Source: Nannocystis bainbridge
Lineage (GTDB): Bacteria > Myxococcota_A > Polyangia > Nannocystales > Nannocystaceae
Length of the DNA: 64,000 bases
Assembly: GCF_028368995.1 (NCBI RefSeq)
Contig: NZ_JAQNDL010000004.1
Span: forward strand, 192,001-256,000
Reading direction: 5' to 3'
The notes below the pieces were generated by a model. It searched no databases. It was not told the DNA's origin and saw nothing but the letters and a program-made list of their open reading frames with translations. Numbering within the stretch: position 1 is the first letter of the stretch; each line of letters starts with the position of its first letter. The translations under genes and the position numbers were made by a program. Shown piece after piece: positions 1,207 to 62,900 of the stretch.

Positions 1207-1275
1207 GGGTCATGTCCAGTCGGACATGTCTTTTTTGACATGTCCTGAGGGGCATTTCTTTTCGGACATGCGGCG
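1207..1275. repeat. 14-bp periodic palindromic repeat array, 5 units (CATG/CATT at 1211, 1225, 1239, 1253, 1267)
   Basis: gggtCATGtccagtcggaCATGtcttttttgaCATGtcctgaggggCATTtcttttcggaCATGcgg. The register is exactly 14 bp. The array lies between the convergent 3-prime ends of two lipoprotein genes. Confidence 0.85.
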
Positions 1276-3282: not shown

Positions 3283-3308
3283 AGGACATGTCCTTGGGGA
3301 CATGACTC
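3283..3308. repeat. 14-bp periodic palindromic repeat array, 2 units (CATG at 3287, 3301)
   Basis: aggaCATGtccttggggaCATGactc, lying between the gene remnant and the 3-prime end of the esterase gene. Confidence 0.75.
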
Positions 3309-3318
3309 AAAAGCACTG

Positions 3319-4650
3319 TCACAGCGGGACGACCGGGCTGACGACCGGGAAGTGCAGCACGAGGTCGTAGGCGAGGGCGGGGCTGAGGCGGGACCAGACG
3401 ACGCTGGAGAGCGGCCAGCGGGCGAAGGCGGGCCGGTAGGCGACGCCGAGGTTGCGCACGTGCTGCTCCCATTCGAACCACCGCGCGACCACGCTGTCGG
3501 CGGGGAGGCGGCGCAGGTCGAGCAGGTATGGGTCGCGCGGGCCGGCCAGCGTGGCCTCGAAGGTGCCGCGCGGCGGGGCGGGGACGCGGTACACGCCGAG
3601 CGGGTTGGCGAAGCCGGGCTCCTCGCTGCCGATCCGGCCGGCGCGGTAGGCGGCGAACGAGCCTGTCTGAAAGGTCATGTGCATGGGGACATACGCGGGT
3701 CCGAACCGGCGCCGCAGGTGCTCGCCCATGCTCGGCGGGCTGCGGCGGCCGTTGGGCAGCAGGGTGGTGCTGGCGGCCACGTGGCCGCTGTGGGCGACGA
3801 GCGCCAGGGTCTCGCCGGGGCGGGCCCGCTCGCGGAACCAGGCGACGTTGTCGGCCATGACGCGGTCGCGGTCGGTGGGCGCGGGGAAGCTGCCGAGCGC
3901 GCGATCGATGCTGGCGAGCAAGAGGTCGAGGCGGTGCACGGCTTCGCCCCAGGCGTCGGGGTCGTACGCGCGGGTGTAGGCGTCGCGGTGGGCGAGGAGG
4001 TGGGCGCGCTCGGCCGCGACGGCGGCGCGCAGGCGAGCGCCGTCGTCGGCCTGATGGTCGGCCCACGGGGCGCGCAGCAGGGCCAGCGCGGCCTCGGTCT
4101 GCGCGGCGTGGGGCGGATCGACGGCGCGCACGTAGGCGAGGACGTGCTCGCCGCAGCCGATGCTGCAGGACACGTCGAGGCCGCCGAGGCGGACCTGCCG
4201 CGCGGGCGGGAGGTCGCGGTTGTGGGCCCGGACCCACTCGAGCAATTCGTCGAGGTCGCGGGTGGCGACGACGTCGCTGCCGAGCTCGGGGCGCGCTCCG
4301 CCGCGCACGTAGGCGTCGAGCTGCGCGATCCATTGGTAGGAGGTCTCGAACAGGACGGTGAGCGGCTCGGGCCGGGCGGCGAGGCACTTCACGACGGCGA
4401 GCTGGGCGGCCCGCAGCTCGTGCACGCCGTGGCTGCTCTCGCCGAGGCCGAGGATGGCGCCGGGCGGGACGGCGTCGCAGACGGGGGCCATGGCGAGGCG
4501 GCCGTCAGCGTCGACGACAGGGACGGCGTGGTCGGCGATCCAGCCGGCGATCTCGGGCTGCACGGGTCGCCAGGGCCTGTCGGCGCCAGTCCACGGGGAG
4601 CACGCGAGCAGCAGCGGCAAGCACCCGGCGAGCAGGCGAGGCGAAGACAT
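3319..4650 (-). CDS. erythromycin esterase family lipoprotein (Ere-like)
   Basis: An internal ATG gives MSSPRLLAGCLPLLLAC (lipobox). The motif GLGESSHGVHEL resembles the GEATHGTHEF signature of the erythromycin esterase family (Pfam PF05139), and the length fits. Confidence 0.8.
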   Translation of the reverse strand: MSSPRLLAGCLPLLLACSPWTGADRPWRPVQPEIAGWIADHAVPVVDADGRLAMAPVCDAVPPGAILGLGESSHGVHELRAAQLAVVKCLAARPEPLTVLFETSYQWIAQLDAYVRGGARPELGSDVVATRDLDELLEWVRAHNRDLPPARQVRLGGLDVSCSIGCGEHVLAYVRAVDPPHAAQTEAALALLRAPWADHQADDGARLRAAVAAERAHLLAHRDAYTRAYDPDAWGEAVHRLDLLLASIDRALGSFPAPTDRDRVMADNVAWFRERARPGETLALVAHSGHVAASTTLLPNGRRSPPSMGEHLRRRFGPAYVPMHMTFQTGSFAAYRAGRIGSEEPGFANPLGVYRVPAPPRGTFEATLAGPRDPYLLDLRRLPADSVVARWFEWEQHVRNLGVAYRPAFARWPLSSVVWSRLSPALAYDLVLHFPVVSPVVPL

Positions 4651-4847
4651 GCGGGCCGAGGACCGCAGGTGTGGTGAATTATTCCCTCGCGGGGGCGGGC
4701 GCGGAGGCGTGACGCGGGGACGACGAATCATTCCCGCACCGGCGTGACGTGCGGCCGCTGGCGCTGCGAAATTTCCTCGCGCGCAGGCCCGGGCGCACGC
4801 GCTTCGCGGCTGGTGGCGGCGGCGAGCGGGGTCTATAAGAGCAGAGC

Positions 4848-5480
4848 ATGAAGCTCCACGGATTTTGGCGCAGCACGTCGACCTGGCGGGTGCGGATCGC
4901 TCTGGCGTACAAGAACCTGGCCCACGAGTATGTGCCAGTCGACCTGCTGGCGGGCGAGGGGGCGCAGAACTCGCTGGAGCACCGCCAGCTCAATCCGATG
5001 GCGCAGGTGCCGGTGCTCGAGCTCGAGCAGGGGCTCTACCTGACGCAGTCGATCGCGATCCTGGAGTACCTCGAGGAGCGGTGGCCGAAGCCGCCGCTGC
5101 TGCCGCGCGATCCGCTGGCGCGGGTGCGGGTGCGGCAATTGACGGAGGTGGTCAACGCGGGGATCCAGCCGCTGCAGAACACGGGGGTGGAGCGGCATGT
5201 GGCGTCGCTCGGGGCCGACCCCTCGGCGTGGATCCAACGCTTCGTCGGCCGGGGGCTGGCGGCGCTCGAGGCGATGACGCTGCCGCTGGCGGGGCGGTAC
5301 AGCGTCGGCGACGCGCTGACGTTCGCCGATCTGACGCTGGTGCCCGAGCTGGCGTTCGCCCGCCGGGTCGGGGTCGACCTGTCGCGCCTGCCGACGCTGC
5401 TGCGCGTCGAGGCCAACTGCGCGCAGCTCGACTGTTTTAAAAAGGCCCACGCGGACGCGCAGCCGGACGCGCCGCGCTGA
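4848..5480 (+). CDS. maiA: maleylacetoacetate isomerase (zeta-class glutathione S-transferase)
   Basis: The N-terminus MKLHGFWRSTSTWRVRIALAYKNL matches the canonical MKLYSYWRSSAAYRVRIALNLKGL start of MaiA/GSTZ. The GST N- and C-domain lengths fit. Confidence 0.85.
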   Translation: MKLHGFWRSTSTWRVRIALAYKNLAHEYVPVDLLAGEGAQNSLEHRQLNPMAQVPVLELEQGLYLTQSIAILEYLEERWPKPPLLPRDPLARVRVRQLTEVVNAGIQPLQNTGVERHVASLGADPSAWIQRFVGRGLAALEAMTLPLAGRYSVGDALTFADLTLVPELAFARRVGVDLSRLPTLLRVEANCAQLDCFKKAHADAQPDAPR

Positions 5481-5499
5481 GCGGAATTCTCGGGGCAGG

Positions 5500-5585
5500 A
5501 CGACATGCCCCGAGGGGCATGTCTCATGGAGAATGTCTGAACGGGCATGTCTGAACGGGCATGGTCTAAGAGACATGTCGTGAAG
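5500..5585. repeat. 14-bp periodic palindromic repeat array, 6 units (CATG/AATG at 5504, 5518, 5532, 5546, 5560, 5574)
   Basis: cgaCATGccccgaggggCATGtctcatggagaATGtctgaacgggCATGtctgaacgggCATGgtctaagagaCATGtcg, lying 3-prime of maiA. Confidence 0.85.
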
Positions 5586-5754
5586 GGCAGCCCGTCCCGC
5601 GGGGCGCGTCGTGCGGGCGTGGCGGGGGCTCAGGGCGAGCTTCGTGGGACTCGATAGCGTGGGGCGTCCCGTGGTCCATGGCTGGGCTAGTTCGCGCCGG
5701 TCGCCTCCGCGCGCCCGCGCCCGCCTGGTGACGGGCTCGCGTTCGCGGTATCCC

Positions 5755-6150
5755 ATGTTCGCCATGCATCAGCCCGACTCGCTCGAAGCCCGCCTTCACG
5801 TCCTGGAGACGACGGTCCGTCGCCTCCGCCTCTCCACGCTGGGCCTGGTGGGTCTGCTGTTCGCGCTCGTGACCTGCGGCAGCGGCGGCGGGTACAGCGA
5901 GAGCAGCACGCGGGAGCAGCTCGGTGTCTTGATGGCGCGGGAGATCCGCGTCGGCGACGAGCGGGCCGCCGTCCACATCGTCGGCCACGAGATCCGCATG
6001 CAGCGGCCCGACAGCGGGACCGTGACGATCGAGGCCAACCGGATCCGCTTCCTCGCGGCCGACGGCAGCGAGCGCGCCACTTTCATCGTCGACGGCACGG
6101 CGCAGCTGGTGGCACAGCAGCCCGAAGGGCCGGCCAAGGTCTGGCCGTGA
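5755..6150 (+). CDS. hypothetical membrane-anchored protein
   Basis: An internal ATG gives MFAMHQPDSL...LGLVGLLFALVTCGSGG, one hydrophobic helix. Third-position GC is high. No family recognised. Confidence 0.5.
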   Translation: MFAMHQPDSLEARLHVLETTVRRLRLSTLGLVGLLFALVTCGSGGGYSESSTREQLGVLMAREIRVGDERAAVHIVGHEIRMQRPDSGTVTIEANRIRFLAADGSERATFIVDGTAQLVAQQPEGPAKVWP

Positions 6151-15455: not shown

Positions 15456-16049
15456 TCACGACGACCGCGGGGTCCGCCGACCGGCGCTCCCCTCGTCGGT
15501 CTCGTCCTGCAGCGACTTGTTGGCGCGGCCGCCCATGTCGCTCTGACTCGTGCCGCCGCCGACGCCGGTCTGACCCATGCGGTTCGGCTCGCCCATGCCC
15601 TGACTGCGGGTCTGGCTCATCCGGCCCTGACCGCCCTCGCCCTGGCTCATGCTGCCGGAGCCCTGGCTGGCGGCCTGGCTGGTGCCGCCGCGGCCGGTCT
15701 CGCCCTGGTTGCCGCTCATGCTGCCCTGGCCGGCGCCCGCGCGGCCGCCCTGGCCCTGGCTCATGCCGGCGCGACCGCCCTGGCTGCTCGCTTGTCCGGC
15801 CTCGCGGCGGCCGCCCATCGAGCCGTGGCGCAGGACCTCGACGAGGTGGCGCGAGGCCTGCTCGATGTGGCGGGCGTCCTGCTCGTAGATCTCGCGCAAG
15901 AGCTCGACGCATTCGGGCGAGTTGGCCTGCTCCGCGTCATGAATGTATTGCTCGTAGGCGCGGAGGGCCTCGGACTTGTGCTGGACGATGGTCACCCAGT
16001 CGTAGGCGAGGTCGCTGAGCGGTTCTTGATTGCGCTTGTCTTCGTTCAT
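15456..16049 (-). CDS. small conserved helical protein, paralog 2, with Gly/Ser/Gln-rich C-terminal tail
   Basis: MNEDKRNQEPLSDLAYDWVTIVQHKSEALRAYEQYIHDAEQANSPECVELLREIYEQDARHIEQASRHLVEVLRHGSMGG, then an (SQG) low-complexity tail of about 110 aa. GAGGA ribosome-binding site upstream. Confidence 0.7.
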   Translation of the reverse strand: MNEDKRNQEPLSDLAYDWVTIVQHKSEALRAYEQYIHDAEQANSPECVELLREIYEQDARHIEQASRHLVEVLRHGSMGGRREAGQASSQGGRAGMSQGQGGRAGAGQGSMSGNQGETGRGGTSQAASQGSGSMSQGEGGQGRMSQTRSQGMGEPNRMGQTGVGGGTSQSDMGGRANKSLQDETDEGSAGRRTPRSS

Positions 16050-16349
16050 GATGGAATCCTCGGTTGCGCTGACCTTGAACCATTTCCTCGCGCGAACCAC
16101 CCAATGGCGTGAGCCGGTCCCGGCGGCGGCGAAGGAGCCACGGGTCGCGCACCTGGCCTCGCTGGCCGCGGCGGTCCGGCGGAGGGAGCGCGCGAAACGG
16201 GCTTCGCCGCGGCCGATGCCGGCAGGGCGAATGCAACGGTCCCGGCGGTCGAACGCCCGCGGTCGAGCTGGACCCGGGGCGCGGCGCTGCTACGTTGAAA
16301 GGCTCTCGGCGCGAAGCAGGCAGCCGGCGGGCCGACCACCGGGGACGGC

Positions 16350-16670
16350 AGGCCGGACGCCGGGCTCGGTGCCCGCATTCGGGAGTTGCACGCGCGACAG
16401 GCCCGGGACGCCGGGCCCGGTGCCCGCATTCGGGAGTTGCACGCGCGACAGGCCCGGGCTGCCGGGCCCCGTGCCCGCATTCGGGAGTTGCACGCGACAG
16501 GCCCGGGACGCCGGGCCCGGTGCCCGCATTCGGGAGTTGCACGCACGACAGGCCCGGGCTGCCGGGCCCCGTGCCCGCATTCGGGAGTTGCACGCGACAG
16601 GCCCGGGACGCCGGGCCCGGTGCCCGCATTCGGGAGTTGCACGCACGACAGGCCCGGGCTGCCAGGCCCG
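16350..16670. repeat. tandem repeat, about 51-bp unit, about 6 copies, each with an internal GCCCGG-GACG-CCGGGC hairpin
   Basis: The motif gtgcccgcattcgggagttgcacgcgcgacaggcccgggacgccgggcccg recurs with starts near 16369, 16420, 16471, 16520, 16571 and 16620, with alternating 51- and 49-bp variants. The array is non-coding and lies upstream of the paralog-2 gene. Confidence 0.85.
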
Positions 16671-16788
16671 GCGGGGGGCGAACATGCCAGACGGCAGACG
16701 CGCGAGAGTGCCGCGGCGAGCGGCGCCCCTGCGGGACGCTGCGCTCGCCGCGGAGTGGGGGTGCGTTCGGGCGGTGCGCGGCGACGGC

Positions 16789-17955
16789 TCAGGTCGAGGC
16801 GCCGCAGGCAGAGGAGGCCAGGCCCGCGAGCACGGCCTCCATCGCGGTCCAGGTGTGGTCCCAGGAGCTGCCGCGCAGACAGGAGTCGACGCGCTGCAGC
16901 CAGCGGCGCCGGTCGCCGCGGTGGAGCTCGCAGGCGACGGCGATCACGAAGTCCTCGGGCTGATCGGCGATCGCCACCAGGCCCTGGATCGCGTAAGGAT
17001 TGATGACGTCGCGGATCGGGGTCGACACCACCGGCTTGCCGGCGGCCAGGTATTCGAGGGTCTGCGTCGGCTGGATCCGCCGCCTCGCCGCCTCGTGGCC
17101 GTAGGGGAGCAGGGCGACGTCCCAGCCGGCGAGGTAGGCCGGCAGCTCGGCGTACGCTTTGCGCCCGAGCTCGTGGATGTTGGGCCGCCGGGGCAGGCGC
17201 GGCCGGTCGGGGCCGCTGCCGTGATCGAGCAGGATGATGTGATAATCGGAGCGCAGGTCGGCGACGGCGACCAGGAGGTCGACGTCGATGTCGTCGAGCG
17301 GGCCGTAGAAGCCGAGGCGCCGCCCGGGGATGTCGCGCTGGTCGGCCGGGTCGGGGCCGCCGTCGCGGGCGCGGGTGAAGTGGGGGGCGTCGACGCCGTT
17401 CGGCAGCAGGTGGGCGCGCGCGCCGAGGTCGCGGGCGAGGTAACGCCCGGGCGCGTCGACGAACACGGCGTCGGCCCGGCGCAGGGCCTCTTCGCGCAGG
17501 AGGTCTTCACCGTCGTGGGGCGTGCGCGGCCCGTCGGCGCAATCGTAGTAGATGACGGCGGCTGGCTTGAGGTGACGACACGCCGAGAGGGCCCGCGGCG
17601 AATCGTGCCAGAGGAAGAATCCACCGAGGTGCAGCTCGCGGACGACGCCGTCGAGCAGACTGCGCAGCAGGGCGTCGCCCTCGTCGCCGGTCAGGCCGCG
17701 GGGCAGGTAGGGGGTGGCGACCACGAGGCCGTCCTTCGGTTCGAAGTCGATGCGCGGGGGTCCCGCAGTCGGGACGGCGGCCTCGACGAAGACGACGCGC
17801 CGCTGCCGCCCGCTGCGAGAGAGGAGGTGGCGGAGGCGCGGATGGGCGTCGTCCCACGCCTGCTGCGAGACGCAGAGGAGCGGGTGGTCGGCTGCGTTCG
17901 GGATCGGCGGGGGCCGATCGAGTTCGTTGACCAGAGTTTCGAGGCCGGCGCGCAT
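16789..17955 (-). CDS. glycosyltransferase family 4 (GT1-fold, group 1)
   Basis: LPNGVDAPHF and E...TLEYLAAGKPVVSTP motifs typical of GT4. The internal ATG at 17955 (MRAGLETL) was chosen. Upstream ORF sequence crosses an AT-richer promoter region and is unlikely to be coding. Confidence 0.75.
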   Translation of the reverse strand: MRAGLETLVNELDRPPPIPNAADHPLLCVSQQAWDDAHPRLRHLLSRSGRQRRVVFVEAAVPTAGPPRIDFEPKDGLVVATPYLPRGLTGDEGDALLRSLLDGVVRELHLGGFFLWHDSPRALSACRHLKPAAVIYYDCADGPRTPHDGEDLLREEALRRADAVFVDAPGRYLARDLGARAHLLPNGVDAPHFTRARDGGPDPADQRDIPGRRLGFYGPLDDIDVDLLVAVADLRSDYHIILLDHGSGPDRPRLPRRPNIHELGRKAYAELPAYLAGWDVALLPYGHEAARRRIQPTQTLEYLAAGKPVVSTPIRDVINPYAIQGLVAIADQPEDFVIAVACELHRGDRRRWLQRVDSCLRGSSWDHTWTAMEAVLAGLASSACGAST

Positions 17956-25346: not shown

Positions 25347-26443
25347 TGGATCTGCAGGGACTGCTCGACCGCCAGCCAGAGCTCGCCGCGCTGTTCGCCC
25401 CACCGGCGGAGCCGGGGGCGGTCGCTGCGTTGCAGCGGGAGCTCGGGCTCGCTGTCCCCGACGCCTTCCATGCGCTGTTCGGGCTCGCCGATGGGTCCGT
25501 CGGTTGGGAGTCGCCGTACGACGCGCGCCACCTGCTGGCCGACGACGGGCTCGTGCTGCACTCGCTCGCGGAGGTGCGAGGCTGGAAGCGATTCTGGGAC
25601 GACCTGGCACGCGATTTCGCTGCGCTCGACGAGGCCGCGCGGCAGCTCGTGTTTCACCACGCGTTCTGGCACCCCGACTGGATACCGCTGGCGCAGAGCG
25701 GGATGGGCGACGTGTACGCGCTCGCCACGACGCCCTGATTCGGCGGCCCGGCGCACCAGGTCGTGCGCTTCGACACCAAGGGCGACGTTTGGTGGGAGGT
25801 CGTCAGCCCGTCGCTCGCGGCCTTCGTCGGGCTGCTCGCCACGCTCCTCGAGCGCGGCGAGCCGGGCCTGCCCTCGTGGAAGCTGGCGCAGCTGTCGCCG
25901 TACGCGCGGCGCGTCGAGCTGCTCCCGATCACCGCGGACCGGTTCGAGCGCGAGGGCGTGCTCCTGGCCGACGTCGCCTGTCCGCCGCCACGCCCGCCGA
26001 CGCCCTCGCTCGGAGCGCTGGCGAGACGGGCGGCCGAGGAGCACGGCGTCGACGAGGCCGCGCTGATCGAGCGAGTCACCGCCGCGGCCCGCCGTGCGAT
26101 CCCGATCGTGTTCGGCGAGGGTCGTCGGGTGGAGGCCGGCTTCGAGGACGAGACCGGCGAGCTGCGATTGTGGTGCGTGGTGATCGTCACCGACGATCTG
26201 CAGCGCCCGGGGCTCGAGATCGAAGTCGCGGCCGCGAGCGAGGTGCTCGGTCCGCTCGATGTCGGCGACGAGCTGTCACTGGTGGTCCCGTTCCGTGACG
26301 ATCCGACCGAGGAGGCGGCGGCCGCGGAGCAGTCCCGGATGTATGGCGCGCTGCTGGCGTGGGATGACGACTGGGCGCGGCGGCTCGACGAGTGGCGCGC
26401 CGCCTACCGCGAGATCGTCGCCGGGGCGCTGCGACAGCCCTGA
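25347..26443 (+). pseudogene. SMI1/KNR4 (SUKH-1) family gene interrupted by an in-frame TGA at 25736..25738
   Basis: ORFs 25178..25738 (real start MDLQGLLD at 25347) and 25763..26443 are in the same frame. The joined translation reads ...GDVYALATTP*FGGPAHQVVRFDTKGDVWWEVVSPSLAAFVGLL..., which is continuous SMI1/KNR4-like sequence. Confidence 0.55.
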
Positions 26444-26478: not shown

Positions 26479-26532
26479 CGGACATGTTCGCATGGGCATG
26501 TTCGATGGGACATGACCCGAGGGACCTGTCCC
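26479..26532. repeat. 14-bp periodic palindromic repeat array, 4 units (CATG/CCTG at 26483, 26497, 26511, 26525)
   Basis: cggaCATGttcgcatgggCATGttcgatgggaCATGacccgagggaCCTGtccc, lying between the convergent 3-prime ends of the SMI1 gene and the dehydrogenase gene. Confidence 0.85.
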
Positions 26533-26548
26533 TTCGAACTTATCATTC

Positions 26549-27718
26549 TCAGGGCCTCAGGACCACCTTGATGCAGGCCTCCTTCTTGTGCTGGAAGATG
26601 TCGTAGCCCTTCGGCGCCTCCTCGAGGTGGAGCCGGTGGGTGACGATGAAGGACGGGTCGATCTCGCGGGCGGCGATGCGCTGCAGCAGGGCCGGGGCGT
26701 AGCGGTGGGTGTGCGTCTGGCCCATCTTCAGGGTCAGGCCCTTGTTGAAGGCGGCGCCGAACGGGAAGTGGTCGATGGGGCCGCCGTAGACGCCGGGGAC
26801 CGAGACGGTGCCGCCCTTGCGGCAGGCCATGACCGCCTGGCGCAGGGCGGTCGGGCGGTCGGGCTGGAGGCCCACGGCCTGCTTGACGCGGTCGTACCAG
26901 AACTCGAGGCCGTGGCCGTGAGCCTCCATGCCGACGGCGTCGACGCAGATGTCGGGGCCGCGCCCGCTGGTCATCTCCTTGAGGACCTCGATGACGTCGG
27001 ACTTCTCGTAGTCGATCGGGACGGCGCCGCACTGGGCCCGCGCCAGCTCGAGCCGCTCGGGGAAGCGGTCGATGGCGACCACCCGCTCGGCGCCCAGCAT
27101 CTTGGCGCTCTTCATGGCGAACAGGCCGACCGGGCCGGCGCCCCACACCGCCACGAGGTCGCCCGGCTGCACGCCGCACACGTCGACGGCCATGAAGCCG
27201 GTGGCGAAGATGTCGCCGATGAACAGCACCTGCTCGTCGCCGAGGTCGCTCTCGATCTTGAAGTGATTGACGTCGGCGAACGGCACCCGCACGTACTCGG
27301 CCTGACCGCCGGGGTAGCCGCCGAACATGTGCGAATAGCCGAACAGGCCGGCCGGCGCGGCGCCGAATTGCTTGGTGGCGAGGGCGGCGTTGGGGTTGCT
27401 GCGGTCGCACAGCGACCACAGCTGTCGCTTGCAGAAGTAGCAGTCGCCGCAGCTGATGTTGAAGGGCACGACCACGCGGTCGCCCGGCTTCACGTCGCGG
27501 ACCTCGCGGCCGACCTCGACGACCTCGCCCATGAACTCGTGGCCGAGCACGTCGCCCTTCTGCAGGGTCGGGATGAGCCCCTCGTAGAGGTGGAGGTCCG
27601 AGCCGCAGATGGCGCACGCGGTGACCTTGACGATCATGTCCCTGGGCTCCGAGAGCTGCGGATCGGGGACGGTCTCGACCCGCACGTCGCGGGCCCCGTG
27701 GTAGCGCAGTGCTTTCAT
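26549..27718 (-). CDS. zinc-dependent alcohol dehydrogenase (glutathione-independent formaldehyde dehydrogenase-like)
   Basis: Catalytic zinc ligands (CAICGSDLH...GHEFMGEV), structural zinc Cys cluster ([15 protein letters not shown]) and a Rossmann fold motif (GAGPVGL). Confidence 0.9.
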
Positions 27719-34593: not shown

Positions 34594-34794
34594 ATGAACC
34601 GCGATCAGATCCAAGGAAAGTGGGAGCAGCTCAAGGGCAAGGCCAAGCAGATGTGGGGCGACCTGACGGACGACGATTTCCTGAAGGCCGAGGGGAACGC
34701 CGACAAGCTGTGCGGGATCATCCAGGAGCGCTCGGGTGAGCGCCGCGAAGACATCGAGCGCAAGCTCGACTACAAGAACTACGGCAATCAGTAG
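34594..34794 (+). CDS. csbD: CsbD-family general stress protein, copy 2
   Basis: [58 protein letters not shown]. It is about 85% identical to copy 1. Confidence 0.9.
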
Positions 34795-34930: not shown

Positions 34931-35008
34931 AGGATATGTCTGCATGGACATGTCCTTGGGGACATTGTCCGCGCGATCCGGGCGGACCTGTCTCGGGTGA
35001 CATGATCG
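34931..35008. repeat. 14-bp periodic palindromic repeat array, 5 units with one 24-bp step (TATG 34935, CATG 34949, CATT 34963, CCTG 34987, CATG 35001)
   Basis: ggatATGtctgcatggaCATGtccttggggaCATTgtccgcgcgatccgggcggaCCTGtctcgggtgaCATGatcg. Confidence 0.8.
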
Positions 35009-37825: not shown

Positions 37826-37838
37826 GGCGTCGAATCAC

Positions 37839-37944
37839 GGGACATGTCCGGGAGGTCATATCCTGTGATTGTGCGAGGCGCCCGTCGGCGGCGCCTCGCC
37901 GAGTGACTTCGGATTCGTTGTACATGTCTGAAGGGACATGGATG
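37839..37944. repeat. two short 14-bp periodic palindromic repeat arrays (CATG/CATA at 37843, 37857; CATG at 37923, 37937)
   Basis: gggaCATGtccgggaggtCATAtcc ... tgtaCATGtctgaagggaCATGgatg, lying between the convergent 3-prime ends of the lipoprotein and SARP genes. Confidence 0.75.
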
Positions 37945-37976
37945 TCGATTGACGCTCGTCGGCGAACGCTGCCGGC

Positions 37977-46855: not shown

Positions 46856-48751
46856 CTATTGCATGAAGCAGTAGATCGGCTTCTTCCACGTGCACGATTG
46901 CTGGCAGACGAACTGCGTCCACAGGCCGTCTGCTTTATTAAACTGGCCGCCGCCGACGATGCCGGCGGCGTTGCTGGTCCAGTTCTGGCAATCGGTGAAG
47001 TTGGCGAACATCGTGCCGTCGATGATCGTGTTGGTGAAGGTGAGCTGGGAGATGCCGCCGCAGACGTTGGCGTCGGCGCCGGGCGGGGTCTTGAGCTCGG
47101 ACAGGTTGATGGCGGCGGCGTGGTTGCCGTCGACGAGGTCGTTCCAGTTGTTGGCGATGAGGACGCCGTCGCGGCGGGCGTAGGGGATCGTGGGCTTGGT
47201 GAAGCGGGTGACGGGGGTGCCGGTGTCGTCGCTGAGCCAGGCGCGGTAGGTGCCGGGGAGGCCGGCGGCCTGGGCGGCGGCCTGGCACTTCATGTCGGCG
47301 CCGAGGAGGCCGCCGAGGTTGCCGTCGAAGCCCTGGCTGGTGGCGAACACGACCTTGTGGGCCTTGCACTTCGAGCTGCAGCCATCACCCTCGGCGAGGT
47401 TGCCGTCCTCGCAGTTCTCGCCGGCGGCGCTGTTGATGACGCCGTCGTTGCAGGCGGCGAAGGTGCAGTCGATGTCGCAGGTGGCCGACTGACCGCCGTG
47501 ATCGCAGGCCTCGCCGGCGGCCTCGTTGAGGACCTCGTCGCCGCAGACGACGGCGGTGCAGTCGTCGTCGCAGGTGGCGGTCTCGAAGCCGTCGTCGCAG
47601 GTCTCGCCGGCGGCAGGGTTGACGGTCTTGTCGCCGCAGACGGCGAGGGTGCAGTCGGCGTCGCAGGTGGGGCTGGGGCCGCCGGTGTCGCAAGCCTCGC
47701 CGGCGGCGGGGTTGGGGTGGGCGTCGCCGCACTGGGACGGGGTGCAGTCGCTGTCGCAGGTGGCGCTGTTGCCAGCGGTGTCGCAAGCCTCGACGCCGGC
47801 GAGCACGAAGCCGTCGCCGCACACGGCGAGCTTGCACAGACCGGTGCAGGCGTCATCGTCGAGGTCGTTGCCGTCGTCGCACTCCTCGTCCATCTGCAGG
47901 ATGCCGTCGCCGCAGGTGGCGAGGGCGCAGTCGTTGGTGCAGGCGTCGTCGTTGATGTCGTTGCCGTCGTCGCAGGCCTCGAGCACGGCGTGCACGATGC
48001 CGTCCCCACATTCGGCAGGGATGCAGCCGACCAGGCAGTCGTCATTGTCGAGGTCGTTGCCGTCGTCGCAAGCCTCGACGCCGAGCTGCACGATGCCGTC
48101 GCCGCACACGGCGGTGATGCAGGCGTTGGTGCAGTCGTCGCCGTCCTCGAGGTTGCCGTCGTCACACTCCTCGGGGACCTGGACGATGCTGTCGCCGCAG
48201 ATGGGCAGGCGACAGCCCGCCGAGCAGCCGTCATCCTCGATGTTGTTGCCGTCGTCGCACTCCTCGCCCAAAAGCTCGTGGAGGACGCCGTCGCCGCAGG
48301 TGGCGGCGATGCAGGCGTTGGAGCAGGCGTTGAGATCGACCAGGTCGCCGTCGTCGCACTGCTCGCCCGGATCGAGCTGGCCGTCGCCGCAGATCGGCGG
48401 TTCGCCGGTGGTGCTGTCGGTGTCCGTGGTGGTGGTCGAGGTCGTCGAGGTGGTGGTCGAGGTCGTGGTGTCGGTGGTGTCGGTGACGGCGGTGTCGGTG
48501 CCCGGATCGGTGGTGGGCCCGGCGGTGGTGCCAGTCTCGGTGCCGCCCATGGTGCTGGTGGAGGTGGTGGGCAGGCTGGTGGTGGGCAGGTCAGGCCCGC
48601 TGGTGCTGCCAGCCGTGGTGGTGCCGTCGGTGTCGGTGGTGCCACCGGCAGAGTCGGTGGTGACGGCGGTGTCGGTGCGACCGCATGCGCCGAGCGCCGC
48701 GGCGAGCACGACGAGTCCCAGCGAACGACAAGCGAAGCTGTAAGCGAGCAT
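46856..48751 (-). CDS. lipoprotein with Myxococcus-type cysteine-rich repeats and DUF1554-like C-terminal domain
   Basis: MLAYSFACRSLGLVVLAAALGACG lipobox and a Thr-rich linker. About ten repeats of C(G/N)DG...(E/A)CD(D/T)GN...C...C follow (myxo_disulf_rpt-like). The C-terminal KVVFATSQGFDGNLGG...YCF domain is as in DUF1554 partners. Confidence 0.8.
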   Translation of the reverse strand: MLAYSFACRSLGLVVLAAALGACGRTDTAVTTDSAGGTTDTDGTTTAGSTSGPDLPTTSLPTTSTSTMGGTETGTTAGPTTDPGTDTAVTDTTDTTTSTTTSTTSTTTTDTDSTTGEPPICGDGQLDPGEQCDDGDLVDLNACSNACIAATCGDGVLHELLGEECDDGNNIEDDGCSAGCRLPICGDSIVQVPEECDDGNLEDGDDCTNACITAVCGDGIVQLGVEACDDGNDLDNDDCLVGCIPAECGDGIVHAVLEACDDGNDINDDACTNDCALATCGDGILQMDEECDDGNDLDDDACTGLCKLAVCGDGFVLAGVEACDTAGNSATCDSDCTPSQCGDAHPNPAAGEACDTGGPSPTCDADCTLAVCGDKTVNPAAGETCDDGFETATCDDDCTAVVCGDEVLNEAAGEACDHGGQSATCDIDCTFAACNDGVINSAAGENCEDGNLAEGDGCSSKCKAHKVVFATSQGFDGNLGGLLGADMKCQAAAQAAGLPGTYRAWLSDDTGTPVTRFTKPTIPYARRDGVLIANNWNDLVDGNHAAAINLSELKTPPGADANVCGGISQLTFTNTIIDGTMFANFTDCQNWTSNAAGIVGGGQFNKADGLWTQFVCQQSCTWKKPIYCFMQ

Positions 48752-51982: not shown

Positions 51983-52792
51983 CTACCGATCCTCGAGGTC
52001 GCCGTTGCCGTACGGCTGCTCGATGTCGTGCACGCCGTCGAAGCTGATATCCATCAGCACGACATTCCCGCGCCGAACTGCGAGGTTGTCCCGCCCGTCG
52101 CCATCCCAGTCGCCGACCAGATATTCGTCTTCCGCGTTGCCGTTGCCGAACCCCTGATCGAAGTCGTGCACGCCGTCGAAGTTGAAGTCCATCAGCACGT
52201 GGTTCCCGCGCCGAACTGCGAGGTTGTCCCGCCCGTCGCCATCCCAGTCGCCGACCAGATATTCGTCTTCGCTGACGCCGTTACCGTACCCCTGGTCGAA
52301 GTCGTGCACGCCGTCGAAGTTGAAGTCCATCAGCACGTGGTTCCCGCGCCGCACCGCCAGGTTATCCCGCCCGTCGCCGTCCCAGTCGCCGACGAGATAC
52401 TCATCCTCCGCGCTGCCGTCGCCGTACCCCTGGTCGAGGTCGTGCACGCCGTCGAAGTTGAAGTCCATCAGCACGTGATTCCCGCGCCGCACAGCCAGGT
52501 TGTCTCGCCCGTCGCCGTCCCAGTCGCCGACGAGATACTCATCCTCCGCGCTGCCGTCGCCGTACCCCTGGTCGAGGTCGTGCACACCGTCGAAGTTGAA
52601 GTCCATCAGCACGTGATTCCCGCGTCGCACCGCCAAGTTGTCCCGCCCATCGCCGTCCCAGTCGCCGACCTTGTAGCGGGTCTTGTCGCGTCGCACGCGC
52701 CCGTCGGAGTCAGCAGCAGCGTCGGTGGCTGTGAAGCCCATGCCGCTCGTCAGCGACAGGGAGAACAAAACGGTCAGGGTACTTTTCAACAA
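51983..52792 (-). CDS. secreted protein with five near-identical about 48-aa FG-GAP/VCBS-like repeats
   Basis: Signal peptide, then five copies of YLVGDWDGDGRDNLAVRRGNHVLMDFNFDGVHDxDQGYGDGSAEDE. The DNA copies are nearly identical. Confidence 0.75.
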   Translation of the reverse strand: MLKSTLTVLFSLSLTSGMGFTATDAAADSDGRVRRDKTRYKVGDWDGDGRDNLAVRRGNHVLMDFNFDGVHDLDQGYGDGSAEDEYLVGDWDGDGRDNLAVRRGNHVLMDFNFDGVHDLDQGYGDGSAEDEYLVGDWDGDGRDNLAVRRGNHVLMDFNFDGVHDFDQGYGNGVSEDEYLVGDWDGDGRDNLAVRRGNHVLMDFNFDGVHDFDQGFGNGNAEDEYLVGDWDGDGRDNLAVRRGNVVLMDISFDGVHDIEQPYGNGDLEDR

Positions 52793-53869: not shown

Positions 53870-54217
53870 ATGACGCGAACCTTGACCGTATTTGTTGCTT
53901 CGCTGGGCCTCACGGCCTGCTCCACGAACGACGAGACCGCCTCGGCGACGGAGACGTCCGCCGACACGATGGCGACGGTCACCGGCGACGGGCCGGGCAC
54001 CGAAGGAGGCTCGGAGCCGACGGCGGGCGGGCCGACCACGGAGAGCGGTGGCTCGACGGCGGGGGACAGCACCGCCACCACCGACGACGAAGGGATTCCC
54101 ACCGGGACCTCGGTCGCTCTCGCACCCTTGGCGGACGCGGGAGAGCAACATGGCTGGAAGGACATGTCGCCCTCGTCGCCGTGGGTCGGCTTGCGCGGCG
54201 GCTTCAGGGCTTCTTGA
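53870..54217 (+). CDS. small Thr/Gly/Ser-rich lipoprotein
   Basis: MTRTLTVFVASLGLTACSTNDE lipobox at the internal ATG. The ORF-track GTG start 18 nt upstream is less likely. Confidence 0.45.
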   Translation: MTRTLTVFVASLGLTACSTNDETASATETSADTMATVTGDGPGTEGGSEPTAGGPTTESGGSTAGDSTATTDDEGIPTGTSVALAPLADAGEQHGWKDMSPSSPWVGLRGGFRAS

Positions 54218-54782
54218 CCGTGACCCCGCGAGAGATCAGCCGCAAGAGGGCGTTGGGCTCGATGTTGCGCGGCGTCGCGGTGAGCTGCCGGAGCGCTGGC
54301 AAGCTCTCGAGCGCGGCGGCGTCGGTGCAGCGGCCCGTGAGGATCAGTTCGGCCAGCTTCGGGTGGCCGCGCAACGGCCCGAGGTCGAGGTCCTGGGGGC
54401 GATAGCCGTGGCCGTAGAGCGAGAGCGAGGTGAGCGCGCCGAGCCGTTCGATGCCCGCCAGCGAGTGCAGGTCGTAGGGACACGCGTCGTCGCTGCCGAC
54501 CTCGAACCCGAGGGCGCGATCGATGAGCCTGTAGATGTCGTTGCTGTCGTCGAAGTCGAGCTCGGTGATGCGGGCGACCTCGGCGGGGTCGAGCGGGAGG
54601 GCGTGTACGCGGGCGATCGCCGCGTGGGCGCGAGTGTCTTCGTCGCCGTCAGGGTCGAGGTCCGCCAGCGCCCGGACGATCGTTTCGACCTCGATCGCGC
54701 CGGCGCGGAGCAGGGCGTCGACGACGGCGAGGTGCAAGCCAGGGTCGGGGAATGGGCCGGCGGACTCCGTTACCTCGGTCAT
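54204..54782 (-). CDS. hypothetical protein, possibly leucine-rich-repeat-like
   Basis: MTEVTESAGPFPDPGLHLAVVDALLRAG...LHSLAGIERLGALTSLSLYGHGYRPQDLDLGPLRGHPKLAELIL. The N-terminal 33 aa of the ORF track translate the repeat array and are excluded. Confidence 0.5.
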   Translation of the reverse strand: MTEVTESAGPFPDPGLHLAVVDALLRAGAIEVETIVRALADLDPDGDEDTRAHAAIARVHALPLDPAEVARITELDFDDSNDIYRLIDRALGFEVGSDDACPYDLHSLAGIERLGALTSLSLYGHGYRPQDLDLGPLRGHPKLAELILTGRCTDAAALESLPALRQLTATPRNIEPNALLRLISRGVTVKKP

Positions 54783-54846: not shown

Positions 54847-54916
54847 GGAGCATGCCTGATCGGACATGTCCCCGGGGACATGCCCCATCGAGCATGTCCC
54901 CGCGGGCATGCCCCTC
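54847..54916. repeat. 14-bp periodic palindromic repeat array, 5 units (CATG at 54851, 54865, 54879, 54893, 54907)
   Basis: ggagCATGcctgatcggaCATGtccccggggaCATGccccatcgagCATGtccccgcgggCATGcccc, lying between two same-strand genes. Confidence 0.85.
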
Positions 54917-54919
54917 AGG

Positions 54920-57900
54920 TCAGGAGACGGCCTTGCGGAGGGCCAGGTAGGCGTCGCTCAGCATCCACACGCACAGGTCCTGGGCGTTGCGGCTGAGGAC
55001 GATGCGCTGCTTGATGTTGCCGTTGGCGAAGCCGTCGAGCAGGCAGGCGGCCGACAGGACGCCGGCGACGTCGCCGGACAGCAGCAGGGCCATGCGCAGG
55101 TCGGTGGTGAGGGTCGCGCGGGCGGTCGCGGCGGGCTCGAAGTGGTGGCTCGAGAGGGCCTGGCAGACGCGCAGGAGCGGGCGACGCTGGCGGCGGGGCA
55201 GGTTCTTGCCGAGGTTGTTGGCGACGTCGCGGAGGCGGCGGGCGTCGGGGTCGGCGGTGATGGCGTTGAAGACCTTCGTGACCTCGAAGCTGGCGGCGAT
55301 CATCAGGTCGAGCTCGACCGGGACCAGCGAGCGCACGCGGCCGCCGCCGAGGGCCCGGCGGGCCAGGGCGAGGGCTCCGAGGCCGCGCCAGCTGATCGGG
55401 TCGCCGCGCAGCCACAGGTTGACGCCGAGGCGGAAGGTCGGCTCCTCGCCCTCGTCGAGCACGGCGACGGTGTTGTTGATCGAGGTGGCGCGCATGGCCA
55501 TGTCCTCGATGCCGAGCAGGCGACACCACTGCTGCAGGTTGTTGCGGATGGCGCCGGTGTCGACGTTGGGCGGGACCGGCACGGTCTCGTCGCCGTTGAG
55601 GCCGGTGAACTCGGGGAACATCCGGTCCATCGCCGTCTCGACGCAGGTCAGCAGGTCGTTGATGTCGGGCAGCTCGCCCGGGGCGAACAGCAGCTGGCGC
55701 AGGGCCGGGGTGGCGAAGGCGGCCTGCAGGCCCTGGGCCGAGGCCGGGCGCATGAAGCCGTCGGGCAGGCCGATCGACTCGCCGGGCTCGAGCGCGTGGA
55801 CGAGCAGCCGCGCCATCTGGGCCAGGCCGGGGTTGGGCCGGTTGGCGACCTCGGCGAGCAGGCGGATGTCGCTCGGGTTGAGGGCGCCGCGGCCGATGCC
55901 GCCGAGCATGGCGAGCCGGATCGGCTCGAGGAAGGTGCTGACGCGCTCGGTCTGGCCGAGCCGCTCGAGCAGGCGAGTGAGCAGGAGGATGGTGGTGCGG
56001 TTGCCAGGCCCGAGCTCGGCGGCCCGCTCGACGGCGGCGAGCGCCTGGGCCTCGCGACCTGGCACTTCGGCCAGCAGGCTGGCGCGCCGGAAGTAGAGCT
56101 CGTGCAGGCGATCGGGGTCGCGCTCGCGGGCGCACAGGCGATCGAGCAGCTCGGCGGCCTCGGCGGGCTGACCTGTCCGTTCGAGCAGGCCGGCCATGAG
56201 GGTGATGGCCCGCGGGTCGTCGCCGCGCGAGGCGAGGACGATGCGGCCGTGCTCGAGCGCGCGAGCGAGGGTCTCGGGGGCGCGCGCGAGGTAGCCGGCG
56301 AGGATCAGGCGCAGGTCGACGGCGGACGGATCGGCGGGGTCGTAGAGCGCGAGCAGCTGCTCCATGACGCGGGCCGACTCGGCCTCCTTGCCGAGCTGCT
56401 GGTAGCAGCGCACGAGGCCGCGGAGGGCCTGCTTGCCGTCGGGCCGGGCCTGGGCCGCGACGGTGAAGTAGGCGAGCGCGTCCTCGTCGCGGGGGCTCTG
56501 CTCGCCGAGGTAGACGCCGAGCTCGTAGCGCAGGCCGGCGTCGCTGATCCGGCCGAACACGGTGCGCAGCAGGTCGAGCGCGGGCTTGGGCTCGGGCAGC
56601 TGGCTGGCGAGGGCGCGGGCGAGGCCGATGGCGTCGCGGTAGTGAGGATCGCGGCCGAGGATCTGGCCGAGCAGGCCGAGCGCGACCTCGGCGTCGGCGG
56701 GCTTGCCGGTGTTGCCGGCCCGCACGGCGGCGTCACGCGCCTCGGCCATGAGGGTGTGCACGCTGACGGCCTTGGTCTTGGGCGCGGCCGACTCGCGGGC
56801 GGCGCCGGAGGAGACGCGCTGGAGGCCGAGCTCGGCCGGGGCGAGCGAGGGCATGGCCCGCAGGGCGGCGCGATAGGCCCGCTGGGCCTCGTTGACGGCG
56901 CCGGCCTGTTCGAGCAGCTCGGCGCTCTCGAGGTAGAAGATGGCCCGCTCGCCGTCGCTCTGGGCCCGCACGGCCCGCGCGCCGACGGCGTCGGTCATGG
57001 CCAGCGGGTTGTTGGGATCGGACAGCAAGCCCTCGAGCAGGCGCACGGCGTAGGGGTTGCCGGGATCCTCGCGCAAGGCGCCGAGGATGGCGTTGGCGGC
57101 GAACTCGCGATCTTCGGGGGCGGCGGAGCGCAGCAGGACCTCGGCCGACTCGACCAGCAAGGTGGCCTTGTAGTGGGTGTCCTCGCTGACGCGCGCGAGC
57201 CGGAGCCGCTGGTTGGGCAACGACTCGGTGTCGCCGACCTTGCGCAGCAGGTTCTTGTACTCGCGCAGCAGGATGGCGTCGTCGGGGGTGTGCTCGATCG
57301 CCTCTTCGTAGTTGCGCCGGGCCTCGTCGAGGTTGCGCTCGGCGAGGTGCAGGCGGGCGAGGTGGACGAGCACGCCGGCGCGCGCCGGGCCGGTCAGGTG
57401 CTGGCTCTGATCCTCGAGCAGGCGCACGAGGTTGGGGACGTCGCGGTTGGCGACCAGCAGCCGACGCGCGCGCTCGCTGGCGAGGCCGTGCTGCGGCTGC
57501 ACGGCGAGCGCGGCCCGGTAGTGCTGCAGGGCCCGATCCTCGTCGACGAAGGCGGTCTCGGACTCGGGCTCGTCCTTGCGCGCGAGGGTCTCGGCGAGCA
57601 GGCCGAGGCGGTAGTGGTAGTCGGCCAGCAGCGCGGGGCTGTGCGGCAGGTCCTGGGCGCGCAGGAGGTCGTAGGCGTCGCGGACGCGGCCGTTGGCCGA
57701 GAGCAGCTGCAGCAGGGCCTCGCGCGCGGGCACGAGGTCGGGGTTCAGGCGGTAGGCGCGGCCGAGGTAGTCGATCGCGCGGTCCATGTCGCCGACCTCC
57801 TCGAAGCAGATCCGGCCGGCCTTGAGCGCGAGCACGGCGGGGTCGCTGGTGGGGTCGACCTCGGGCTCGTGCAGGCGCAAGAGGTCGTCGAGGTCGCCGC

Positions 57901-59920: not shown

Positions 59921-62900
59921 GCGGGGAGCTCCTCGACGTCGCTCAGCTCGAGCTCGAGCTCGACATTGTAGCCGAGGGCGCGGCGCAGCGCGAGGTGCTC
60001 CTCGGACACGAGGTAGGCGACCAGGGCGGCGGGCCGCGAGGCGGCGAGGGTCGGCGCGGGCGCGGCGTCGCCGGGCGGCCGCGTGGTGAGGCGGCGCAGC
60101 GGCACCCGCGGATCGCCGCAAGCGATCGCGCCGGCCCGATCTTCGCCCTGACGCAAGGTGTCCCGAAGGACAGGATGCGAGAACTGCTGGAGGTTGCGCG
60201 CCAGGATCTCGGCGTCGTCGCCGAAATCGACCGCCACGCCGGCGCCGGCGAGGCCTTCGATGATCGCGTCGGAGACGCTCTCGTCGCGCGGGTGGATGTC
60301 GTCGAGCTCGACGCCGGCGCAGCTGGCAAGGCCGTGGAGGACGGCCATGATGCCGATGTCGTCCATGACGTGGTGGAGGTGGTCGCCGCCGGTCGACAGG
60401 CGGAACAGCGCCCGACCGATCGCCTCGCGCGAGGCGGGCGAGAACGGGGCGCCGTTGATCCTGCGGCCGATCAGCAGCACGGGGGCGGTGCCGACGTGGG
60501 CGACCACGCCGTCGTCGCCGGTCGGGTTGAGGAACAGCAGCGGCTCGCCGACGCCGAGAGTGCGAGCGAGGGCGCGGGTGACGACGGCGACCGAGCTGGC
60601 GGCCGGCAAGCTGTGACGCTGGGCCAGGTTGACCGGCGGCGGCGGGGCGCCGGGGATGCCGGACATGTACTTGACGCCGGCTTGCAGCAGGTGCACGGCG
60701 GCGGCGGCGGCCGGATCGTCGACGGTGAAGAACGGCTGCGGCTTGTCGGGCGCGGTCGGCAGCGGCCACGGGGCGGGCTGCAGGACCTCGCAGCGGCGGG
60801 TCGCGGGCACGAGGTCGGGGTCGACGGTCTCGAGCACGGCGGCGCACACGTAGACGCCGCCCGACTCCTCGGCGGCGTCGAACAGGCGCAGGAGGCCGGC
60901 GATCGGGCCTTCGCCCTCGCCGTCGAATTCGGGGCGGCCGGGCTTGTGCGGGCGCCCGTGGCCGCGGTCGCGCAGGAGGGCCCGCTGGGCGGCGATGCCG
61001 GCCTGGAGGGCGACGCGGGCCTCGTCGCCGCGCCCCAGCTCGATGAGCAGGGCGTGCAGCTCGAGGATGACCTCGGTGTTGGCGGGGCGCAGGCGCAGCA
61101 GCTCGCGCAGGAGCGCGGCGGCCTCCTCGGGCCGACCGCGGACGCGGCGATCGATGTCGGCGAGGGCCCGCAAGCTGCGGACGCGCTCGTCGGCGTCGCC
61201 GAGCTCGAGCAGGCGCTGCAACACTTCGACGCGCTGATCGACGGTGCCGATCGCGGAGGCGATCCGGTCGGCGGCCCGCAAGGCGACGAAGGCCTGGAAG
61301 CCGCCGCGGCTGGCGGCGAGGTAGTGCTCGAAGGCGGCGTCGGGGGCCCCGTTGCGCTCGTGGGCGTCGGCCAGCAAGAACTCGAGCACGGCCCGCAGCT
61401 CGGGCGAGGCCTCGCGCTTCAGGGCCTCTTGCAGCTGGCCGACGGCGTCGCTGCCCCGACCGGCGCGGGCGTAGAGGCGGGCGAGGTCGACGCGCAGGGC
61501 GACGTGATCCTGGAACGAGGCGACGGCGCGCTCGAGCAGGCCGGCGGCGGCGAGGTTGCCGTCGCTGATCTCGACGACGCGGGCGAGCGCGCGGGCGGCC
61601 TCGGGGGTGAGCGTGCGAGCGGCGGCGAGGGCGTCGAAGCGGCGGGTGAGCGGGCCGACCAGCGGCACGGCGCCTTCGCGGCCGTGCTGCTCGCGGGTCC
61701 GCCACAGCGCCGAGAAGGCCGGATCGGAGGCGGGCTCGATGTCGAGGGCGCGGGCCAGGGCGCGCCAGGCCCGGGCCGGATCGCGGGCCCGCACGGCGAG
61801 CAGGCCGGCGCGCACGCACAGCGCGTGCTGGTGGGCCGGGTCGCCGACGAGCAGGGCGATCTGGGCCAGCAGGTCGGCGGCGACCACGAGGTCGGCCGGG
61901 CTGCCGCGCTGCTCCATCAGGCAGGCCTTGGCGTGCAGGGCAGGCAGGTACTTGGGCCAGGTGACGAGGGCGGCGTTGAGGCGCGACAGGGCCTCGTCGA
62001 GGTCGCCGGCGCGGACGTAGAGGTCGGCGCTGCCGCACAGCAAAGCGGCCCGCTCGACGTAGTCCTTTTCGCCGGCGGCGGCGGTGTTGAGCTCGGCGGC
62101 GGCGCGGCGGGTGGGCACGAGGTTGCGGCGCATGCCGATGCGCGCCTGGGCCCGACGGGCCGGCTCGTAGCGCGCGTCCATGGCCAGCAGCTCGGCGTAG
62201 CCGGCGTCGGCGGCGTCGAGGTCGCCGGCCGACTCGGCGGCGCGGGCGGCCCGGTAGCGCAGGCTGTGGGTGAACGGGTGGTCGGCCGACTCCTCGGCGG
62301 TGATCGACAGCGCGGCGGCGGCCCCGGAGCGCACGAGGTCGGGGCGGCGGCTGAAGCGGGCGGCGCGGGCCAGGCGGAGCTGGGTGTTGAGGTCGCGCGG
62401 GCGGGCCTCGGCGGCGGCCTCGAGGTACTGCACGCCGAGCGCGGGCGAGTCGGACATCTCGGCCAGCAGCAGCGCGGCGGCCTGGCGGTTGCCGATGCCG
62501 CGCTCGTGGGCCAGCGCGCCGCGGGCGGCCGACAGCAGCTCGCCGGCGCTGCCGTTGGCGGCGCAGTGCTCGAGCAGGGTGGTCCAGCCGCCGCCGAGGC
62601 TCGGCCACTGCGCGAGGGCCCGCCGCAGCTCGCCGGTGGCCTGCTCGGCCTGGCCGGGGTCGGCCCAGATGCCGGCGGGATCGGAGGCCCGCACCAGCGC
62701 GGCGCGGTAGATCAGCAGGGCGCGAGCCCGCTGGCCGCGCGACAGATCGAAGTGGCGCCCGAGGTAGCCGAGCAGCGCGTCGGTGCGGCCGAGCGCGGCG
62801 GCCAGGCGCTCGCCGGTGTGCAGCAGCGAGAGGTGTTCGGGCCAGGTCTGAAGGACCAGGTCGACCTCGTCGAGCGCCTGCGGCAGCTCGCCGAGCGCGA

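Follow-up and report, generated by a model that had tools for sequence, protein, structure and literature searches.

Iteron, centromere and operator arrays, in which RHH or HTH proteins sit on phased short repeats, lie at one or a few loci beside the genes that they control. HIP1 of cyanobacteria and the DUS and USS of Neisseria and Haemophilus are invariant short motifs, and DUS pairs double as terminator hairpins. Bidirectional or tandem hairpin-only terminators ('I/U/V/X-shaped') lie near stop codons, are shared by convergent genes and often lack a U-tract at high GC. For the REP and BIME elements of Enterobacteria, Pseudomonas and Stenotrophomonas, imperfect palindromes of 20-40 bp, the proposed roles are mRNA 3'-end stabilisation, termination and protein binding. 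REPs occur where ORFs converge or run in the same direction, rarely where they diverge, and one of their ends bears a GTAG or CGTC tag (PMC3733652). Here we describe an array of short palindromic units beside maiA in Nannocystis bainbridge, together with the family to which it belongs, and weigh how such arrays might act.

In the window, by which we mean the whole 64,000-nucleotide stretch of DNA that was analysed, the maiA gene is followed immediately on its 3' side by six 14-bp units in register at 5501-5584, as the first-pass annotation had proposed. The spacing that it gave was borne out as well: its gap of about 20 bp corresponds to an array start 21 nt past the maiA stop, and 170 nt separate unit 6 from the next same-strand gene. 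The CATG cores (one of them degenerate) start at 5504, 5518, 5532, 5546, 5560 and 5574, in exact 14-bp steps. The locus reads as follows.

4848..5480, plus strand: maiA coding sequence (maleylacetoacetate isomerase, GST zeta), an ORF of 210 aa with GST_N Pfam domains
5501..5514, plus strand: unit 1, CGACATGCCCCGAG, being CGACATGCCC followed by CGAG; core CATG at 5504-5507, reading CATGCC
5515..5528, plus strand: unit 2, GGGCATGTCTCATG, being GGGCATGTCT followed by CATG; core at 5518-5521
5529..5542, plus strand: unit 3, GAGAATGTCTGAAC, being GAGAATGTCT followed by GAAC; degenerate core AATG at 5532-5535, an intact CATG in the sister strain L001
5543..5556, plus strand: unit 4, GGGCATGTCTGAAC, being GGGCATGTCT followed by GAAC; core at 5546-5549, AATG in the sister strain L001
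5557..5570, plus strand: unit 5, GGGCATGGTCTAAG, being GGGCATGGTC followed by TAAG; core at 5560-5563, then an extra G, with the register retained
5571..5584, plus strand: unit 6, AGACATGTCGTGAA, being AGACATGTCG followed by TGAA; core at 5574-5577
5502..5523, plus strand: perfect inverted repeat across units 1 and 2, GACATGCCCC-GA-GGGGCATGTC, about a 9-10-bp stem with a 4-nt loop in RNA
5755..6150, plus strand: next same-strand ORF, 131 aa, from our own gene call and also called in the sister-strain contig L001

The maiA product is 100% identical to the maleylacetoacetate isomerase of N. bainbridge, and a Pfam search with the product of 5755-6150 gave no match. The inverted repeat of units 1 and 2 is perfect although neither unit is self-palindromic (A3/C8 versus G3/T8), and in the minimum-free-energy fold a stem at 5488-5515 competes with it. 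Tandem Repeats Finder (TRF) by itself recovered just 3.5 copies, at 5515-5563. Having been described as both the longest and the cleanest array of its family, the maiA array is indeed the longest in the window, where the next arrays have five units, but 7-unit arrays occur at loci L088 and L120; it is not the cleanest, since its units 3 and 5 are imperfect and the array at 54848-54913 has five perfect CATG cores.

Distances between CATG words in the window peak at 14 (14 pairs), 28 (8), 42 (8) and 56 (4), with 0-5 pairs at other distances, and the window holds about nine arrays or doublets of the family in total. Those other than the maiA array are listed here without an assigned strand.

1208..1273: A1, five units between probable convergent stops at 1175 and 1276
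3284..3307: A2, doublet GGACATGTCC-TTGG-GGACATGACT, 12 nt past the stop codon of the erythromycin-esterase-like gene 3319-4731 (minus)
26480..26531: A4, four units filling the convergent gap between 25763-26443 (plus) and the ADH gene 26549-27718 (minus)
34932..34970: A5, three units (GGATATGTCT, GGACATGTCC and GGGACATTGTCC), about 137 nt past the small plus-strand ORF 34594-34794
37840..37863: A6a, doublet in the convergent gap 37826-37976
37920..37943: A6b, second doublet in that same convergent gap
54146..54169: A7, doublet some 35 nt past the stop codon of gene 54204-54782 (minus)
54848..54913: A8, five units with perfect CATG cores and a 28-bp super-period, 7 nt past the stop codon of gene 54920-59920 (minus)

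Several further observations concern the surroundings of these arrays. The 3' end of the erythromycin-esterase-like gene carries three YGAG-loop doublets about 45 bp apart in L001 (199-311) and in RBIL2 (L149 4586-4711), and a single doublet is retained at the homologous place in the window (A2) and in N. punicea. The small ORF upstream of A5 encodes 66 aa and was overlooked by the gene caller; without it, the gap containing A5 appeared divergent. Upstream of A8 on the minus strand, the ORFs 54920-59920 (1667 aa, with TPR matches) and 59917-63999 (at least 1361 aa) overlap by 4 nt. The window also contains a tandem repeat distinct from the CATG family at 16345-16671 (period 51/100 bp, about 6 copies, 90-95% identity), which lies between the minus-strand genes 15456-16049 and 16789-17955, as well as in-frame tandem repeats at 47402-48358 (93/186 bp) and 52001-52670 (138 bp, 4.9 copies) inside the minus-strand ORFs 46856-48550 and 51983-52696, which probably encode repeat-domain proteins.

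Across the family, the unit has the consensus GGRCATGYCC plus a 4-nt spacer, at a period of 14 bp. The profile of 260 units from 59 intergenic arrays (G.71 G.83 R(A.55/G.34) C.99 A.95 T.95 G.98 Y(T.52/C.40) C.78 C.70) is symmetric: the CATG core hardly varies (95-99% invariant), the arms are conserved to a moderate degree, and the four spacer positions are nearly free, the middle two being about 58% A+T. Successive good units lie 14 bp apart in 201 cases, 13 bp in one, 15 bp in one and 28 bp in 11, so that 201 of about 204 near-adjacent pairs keep the same step. Intergenic DNA contains 150 copies of the 8-mer GRCATGYC where 5.5 would be expected (27-fold), mostly in phased arrays, and coding DNA contains 46 where 23 would be expected; the arrays average 59.6% GC against a background of 72.7%.

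We scanned 185,579 species genomes for four CATGYC words at 14-bp spacing. Among the matches listed, carriers of the family include at least six Nannocystis species (radixulma, exedens, pusilla, punicea, RBIL2 and one MAG), a taxonomic range that is a lower bound. Array density is about one per 6-14 kb in six Nannocystis species, an absolute value that is biased by the use of arrays to seed the loci; in DNA that was not seeded in this way (the window plus L149, L150 and L153-L155) there is about one array of at least three units per 14 kb, plus doublets, and the family numbers roughly on the order of a thousand copies per genome. In viral contigs, a three-unit pattern gave 33 single matches, about the chance level. 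Rfam 15 had no match in the window at the gathering threshold and none at E <= 1 in 5400-5800, and searches of the literature for the decamer, and for repeats in Nannocystis or other myxobacteria, returned p53 papers and unrelated matches only, so a CATG palindrome family extending across Nannocystis is apparently new to the literature.

Related arrangements also occur. Variant arrays with a 14-bp period and a non-palindromic CAGG/CCTG core, mostly in direct orientation, lie at L120 5532-5583, L129 1939-1990, L139 4095-4132 and L151 9553-9604; in Nannocystis they occupy short co-directional gaps, with 7-35 nt on each side. Two composite super-arrays, one at L088 3358-3625 with seven near-identical units (CGGACATGCACGTT) beside two older arrays and the other at L081 7717-7966 with four modules of about 72 bp that each hold a 3-unit array, suggest an origin by higher-order duplication.

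The arrays occupy a narrow set of genomic positions. With gene calls from our own codon-position heuristic, under which 81% of the sequence is coding, intergenic arrays of at least four units fall into 31 convergent, 15 tandem and 0 divergent regions, against 60, 141 and 47 such regions in the background. Arrays lie a median of 11 nt from the closest stop codon. Of the 20 arrays in tandem contexts, 19 are closer to the upstream stop (median about 10 nt) than to the following start (about 290 nt). Gaps that contain arrays have a median length of 358 bp, compared to 93 bp, as would be expected at inter-operon boundaries. Taken together, the convergent and tandem bias, the proximity to stops and the long gaps indicate that the arrays mark the ends of transcription units rather than promoters or intra-operon junctions. 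The distribution of the family strongly backs a role at gene 3' ends, and the arrays most likely mark transcript ends. We rejected one apparent case of an array directly 3' of a tRNA (L129 6706-6786), where ARAGORN placed a tRNA-Ala(cgc) beside a 6-unit array: Rfam gave no confirmation, a CDS stop and a GC hairpin lie at the call, and it is probably a false positive.

Comparison between genomes separates the parts of the array that are kept from those that change. Arrays lie 3' of maiA in five lineages despite differing downstream genes, which, depending on the lineage, are a small plus-strand ORF, a convergent TetR gene or a convergent prfC. The state of the maiA 3' array in each genome is given below.

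N. bainbridge: 6 units
Sister strain L001: 6 units
RBIL2: 4 units
N. punicea: 4 units
Metagenomic relative L153: a doublet within the extended end of the CDS
Nannocystaceae MAG L151: four units of GGACCTGTCCGAAG, a variant with a non-palindromic core in place of the CATG array

No array was found within 20 kb in the more distant Myxococcales MAG L152. In L153, the perfect doublet GGACATGTCC-CGAA-GGACATGTCC (2243-2266) falls in the final 30 nt of a maiA with a C-terminal extension (224 aa versus 210 aa), whose reading frame has entered the array. Between RBIL2 and N. punicea, whose maiA third codon positions are 79% identical, the maiA arrays match at 16/16 core positions, 16/24 arm positions and 6/16 spacer positions, with no indels. 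At the ADH gene, an array lies about 16 nt past the stop in N. bainbridge, N. pusilla and N. punicea. The retention of cores and register at maiA while spacers are randomised, together with the array kept at ADH, thus indicates purifying selection on core and register. Comparing N. bainbridge with L001, strains of 96.6% identity, we counted 6 differences across the 84 bp of the array and 3 across 276 bp of flanking sequence, and the AATG-bearing unit has swapped place (unit 3 versus unit 4). Arms, spacers and copy number change by duplications of 14 or 28 bp.

The reading that we tentatively favour, at somewhat short of an even chance, is that the maiA array is a putative array of stem-loops on the transcript, serving as a hairpin-type terminator or as a protector of the 3' end. 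The array would be transcribed as the maiA 3' UTR, and adjacent units would pair in vivo into 10-bp stems with 4-nt loops, with G.U pairs favouring the maiA sense strand. From about 20 nt past the stop codon, the transcript would as a result carry a row of stem-loops, redundant and able to shift register, which could stop or pause RNA polymerase, block 3'-exonucleases, or both, thereby defining the end of the maiA transcript and insulating the downstream gene; slippage or conversion in steps of 14 or 28 bp would alter the size of the array. As the decamer is self-complementary, any two neighbours are able to form the 10-bp stem and 4-nt loop, and because the units are palindromic, one design can serve both transcripts between convergent genes, where most arrays lie.

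At the maiA locus, the pairing potential follows the sense strand. The segment 5481-5600 folds at -59.9 kcal/mol (z -5.1) in the sense direction against -46.7 (z -3.1) in antisense, and the paired positions between adjacent units, sense/antisense, number 41/31 in N. bainbridge, 43/32 in L001, 27/20 in RBIL2 and 27/19 in N. punicea, four arrays that are homologous and so do not count as independent evidence. Among the arrays of the family, folds are more stable than those of shuffles (z -2 to -6.4). Neighbouring units compensate each other (AC beside GT) in 36 cases where 24 were expected, and units two steps apart share their type in 19 cases where 12.5 were expected, giving a 28-bp super-period. 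In the core, 8 double changes are compensated (for example, GGAGATGTCC-TTAA-GGACATCTCC) where 1.95 were expected. Isolated doublets with YGAG loops recur as modules.

Other measures of the family speak less for pairing. Adjacent-unit complementarity is 7.09/10 versus 6.88 for permuted units, with unit identity rising alongside, and the arrays fold less stably per nucleotide, and are AT-richer, than other convergent gaps in the N. bainbridge genome. In the 24 arrays with a defined sense strand, the G.U bias towards that strand is not significant (10 positive, 9 negative), nor is a G.U gradient across convergent arrays (p = 0.15). An apparent 65:40 strand bias of G.U pairs was set aside as confounded by locus ascertainment, most loci having been found through their arrays, a route that skews strand statistics. 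Across the family, covariation and strand asymmetry are weak. We also rejected mini-hairpins within single units, as palindromy at positions 3/8 is no better than random.

Earlier, the array had been read as either a terminator or a protein-binding array, an interpretation that our analysis supports in part. Of the terminator reading, the role at the gene 3' end is strongly supported by the distribution of the family and agrees with the sense-strand pairing at maiA, while a canonical intrinsic terminator does not fit: no T-run follows the maiA array, which is missing from a scan for terminator-like sites. The T content of the sense strand downstream of arrays is 0.12 across the family, five or more T in any 8-nt window occur at only 6 of 20 tandem arrays, and flanking U- or A-tracts of the kind seen in bidirectional terminators are absent across the family, with the exception of A1, which has two hairpins on the plus strand and a T-run after each. 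The protein-binding reading keeps its place, as the invariant CATG and rigid 14-bp phase would suit a sequence-specific reader at least equally well. CATG invariance and 14-bp spacing go beyond what hairpins need, and some factor probably reads the core.

Such an invariant core and rigid phasing make protein sites on DNA a serious rival, if an unlikely one. It supposes that a putative dimeric protein binds each GGRCA|TGYCC palindrome on duplex DNA and polymerises in 14-bp steps, each unit rotated by 120 degrees so that three units span four helical turns, and that the resulting gene-end complex ends transcription as a roadblock, insulates, or forms a topological barrier. The conservation profile, with its nearly invariant CATG, moderately conserved arms, free spacers, overall symmetry and AT-rich spacer centre, is what such sites might look like. 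Half-sites vary independently, positions 3/8 being Watson-Crick pairs in 0.38 of units, the random level, and the 14-bp step is held in 201 pairs, against one each at 13 and 15 bp, despite substitution-saturated spacers. Direct arrays with the non-palindromic CCTG core hold the same period, and neither a U-tract nor a family-wide strand asymmetry, even with one sense strand, is present.

The duplex-site explanation offers no rationale for the compensating neighbours (36 versus 24) and compensated core changes (8 versus 1.95), although mutation by template switching could mimic both, and it sits poorly with the strong wobble bias towards the maiA sense strand in four genomes and with doublet modules that look like hairpins. 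No candidate protein has emerged: CdbA, a nucleoid protein of M. xanthus, was rejected because its motif, a GC-rich direct repeat 4 bp apart, differs from the CATG motif. We know of no bacterial precedent for a genome-wide array of a sequence-specific protein at gene ends. In its fullest form, in which a lineage-specific protein would sit in 14-bp steps on the duplex at about 1000 transcription-unit ends of Nannocystis as a roadblock terminator, insulator or supercoil barrier, the proposal is slightly more doubtful.

Lower in probability, and in our view improbable, is that the arrays are selfish or neutral REP/REPIN-like palindromes, spread by slippage, template switching or a putative transposase, with no host function and surviving only where they do no harm, just past stops and away from promoters. 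Their location bias is the same as that reported for REPs, which lie between unidirectional or convergent ORFs (PMC3733652). Duplications of 14 or 28 bp are visible in units 3 and 4, in the four GAAG-spaced units of L151 and in L088; TRF finds a period of 28 in A1 and A8; the maiA site carries 2 to 6 copies; and turnover there is fast, as shown by the 6 array differences (84 bp) and 3 flank differences (276 bp) between strains 96.6% identical. Decay of a selfish repeat would nonetheless fit poorly with orthologous cores kept at 16/16, and in register, while spacers are randomised, which points to site-level purifying selection. Moreover, because spacers are unrelated from one array to the next, the arrays are not master-element copies, the GTAG or CGTC tag is absent, and a distance of about 11 nt from stops is tighter than avoidance of promoters alone predicts.

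An RNA platform for a multimeric factor, whether a Rho hexamer (YC every ~12-14 nt, six units) or a CsrA-like protein (GGA), seems very improbable. YCC and GGA are present in every unit, and models of rut sites put the Rho footprint close to 84 nt, near the length of six 14-nt units; the arrays, however, are G-rich and structured, the reverse of rut sites, most of them have 2-5 units, and their motif is palindromic without strand bias. The idea of a chance pattern or an ordinary VNTR microsatellite, which describes the non-Nannocystis matches of the same scan that we inspected and rejected (Luteitalea, Thermomonas, Acrocarpospora, cyanobacteria and others; perfect simple tandem repeats of 7 or 14 bp), is refuted for the maiA family by units that differ in arms and spacers, by 0 arrays of at least three units in 100 dinucleotide-preserving shuffles, by the 150 versus 5.5 intergenic 8-mers, by its recurrence in six species and by the very nature of those outside matches.

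How transcripts end in the very GC-rich, 11-13 Mb genomes of myxobacteria is little known, and Nannocystis is a genus mined for natural products. About 1000 recognisable gene-end elements per genome would provide a handle on transcription-unit boundaries in Nannocystis, and their conservation pattern of invariant core, fixed phase and free spacers is unlike that of REPs and ordinary terminators. Whatever reads the CATG core, be it an RNA structure, a nuclease or a DNA-binding protein, could reveal a new mechanism of termination or insulation; were the duplex-protein explanation true, the system at gene ends would be protein-based and sequence-specific. The engineering of myxobacteria could also gain compact bidirectional terminator parts.

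The consensus decamer GGACATGTCC, for which every literature match concerns p53, is identical to the p53 half-site RRRCWWGYYY. The identity is a sequence coincidence; neither spacing nor context is related. A simple VNTR has near-identical units, spacer included, and the maiA units differ in both arms and spacers. With HIP1 and DUS/USS, the family shares a short motif that is invariant genome-wide for reasons beyond pairing, whereas GRCATGYC is not enriched as a free word in coding DNA (46 versus 23 expected). Like iteron and operator arrays, the CATG arrays combine a conserved short core with fixed phasing, free spacers and 2-7 sites, yet they number on the order of 1000 per genome and lie at gene 3' ends only. 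A canonical intrinsic terminator pairs a stable stem-loop near the stop, which the maiA locus has (5502-5523; sense z = -5.1), with a U-rich tract, which it lacks. Hairpin-only terminators likewise place stem-loops tens of nucleotides from stops, share them between convergent genes, set hairpins in tandem and often do without a U-tract; their stems covary freely without a common sequence, however, whereas the CATG arrays keep an invariant tetranucleotide and fixed spacing with modest complementarity. REP/BIME elements are likewise high-copy, extragenic and palindromic, occur in head-to-tail clusters of variable copy number and favour convergent and unidirectional gaps, as do the CATG arrays (31/15/0). 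In place of a 20-40-bp palindrome, the CATG family has a 10-12-bp palindrome repeated every 14 bp, so that only a doublet (24 nt) reaches REP size, and instead of a GTAG or CGTC tag it conserves only the central CATG and degenerate arms. Overall, the family falls outside the REP/BIME definition in lacking the tag, and probably in unit size too, and is REP/BIME-like in its location and probable role.
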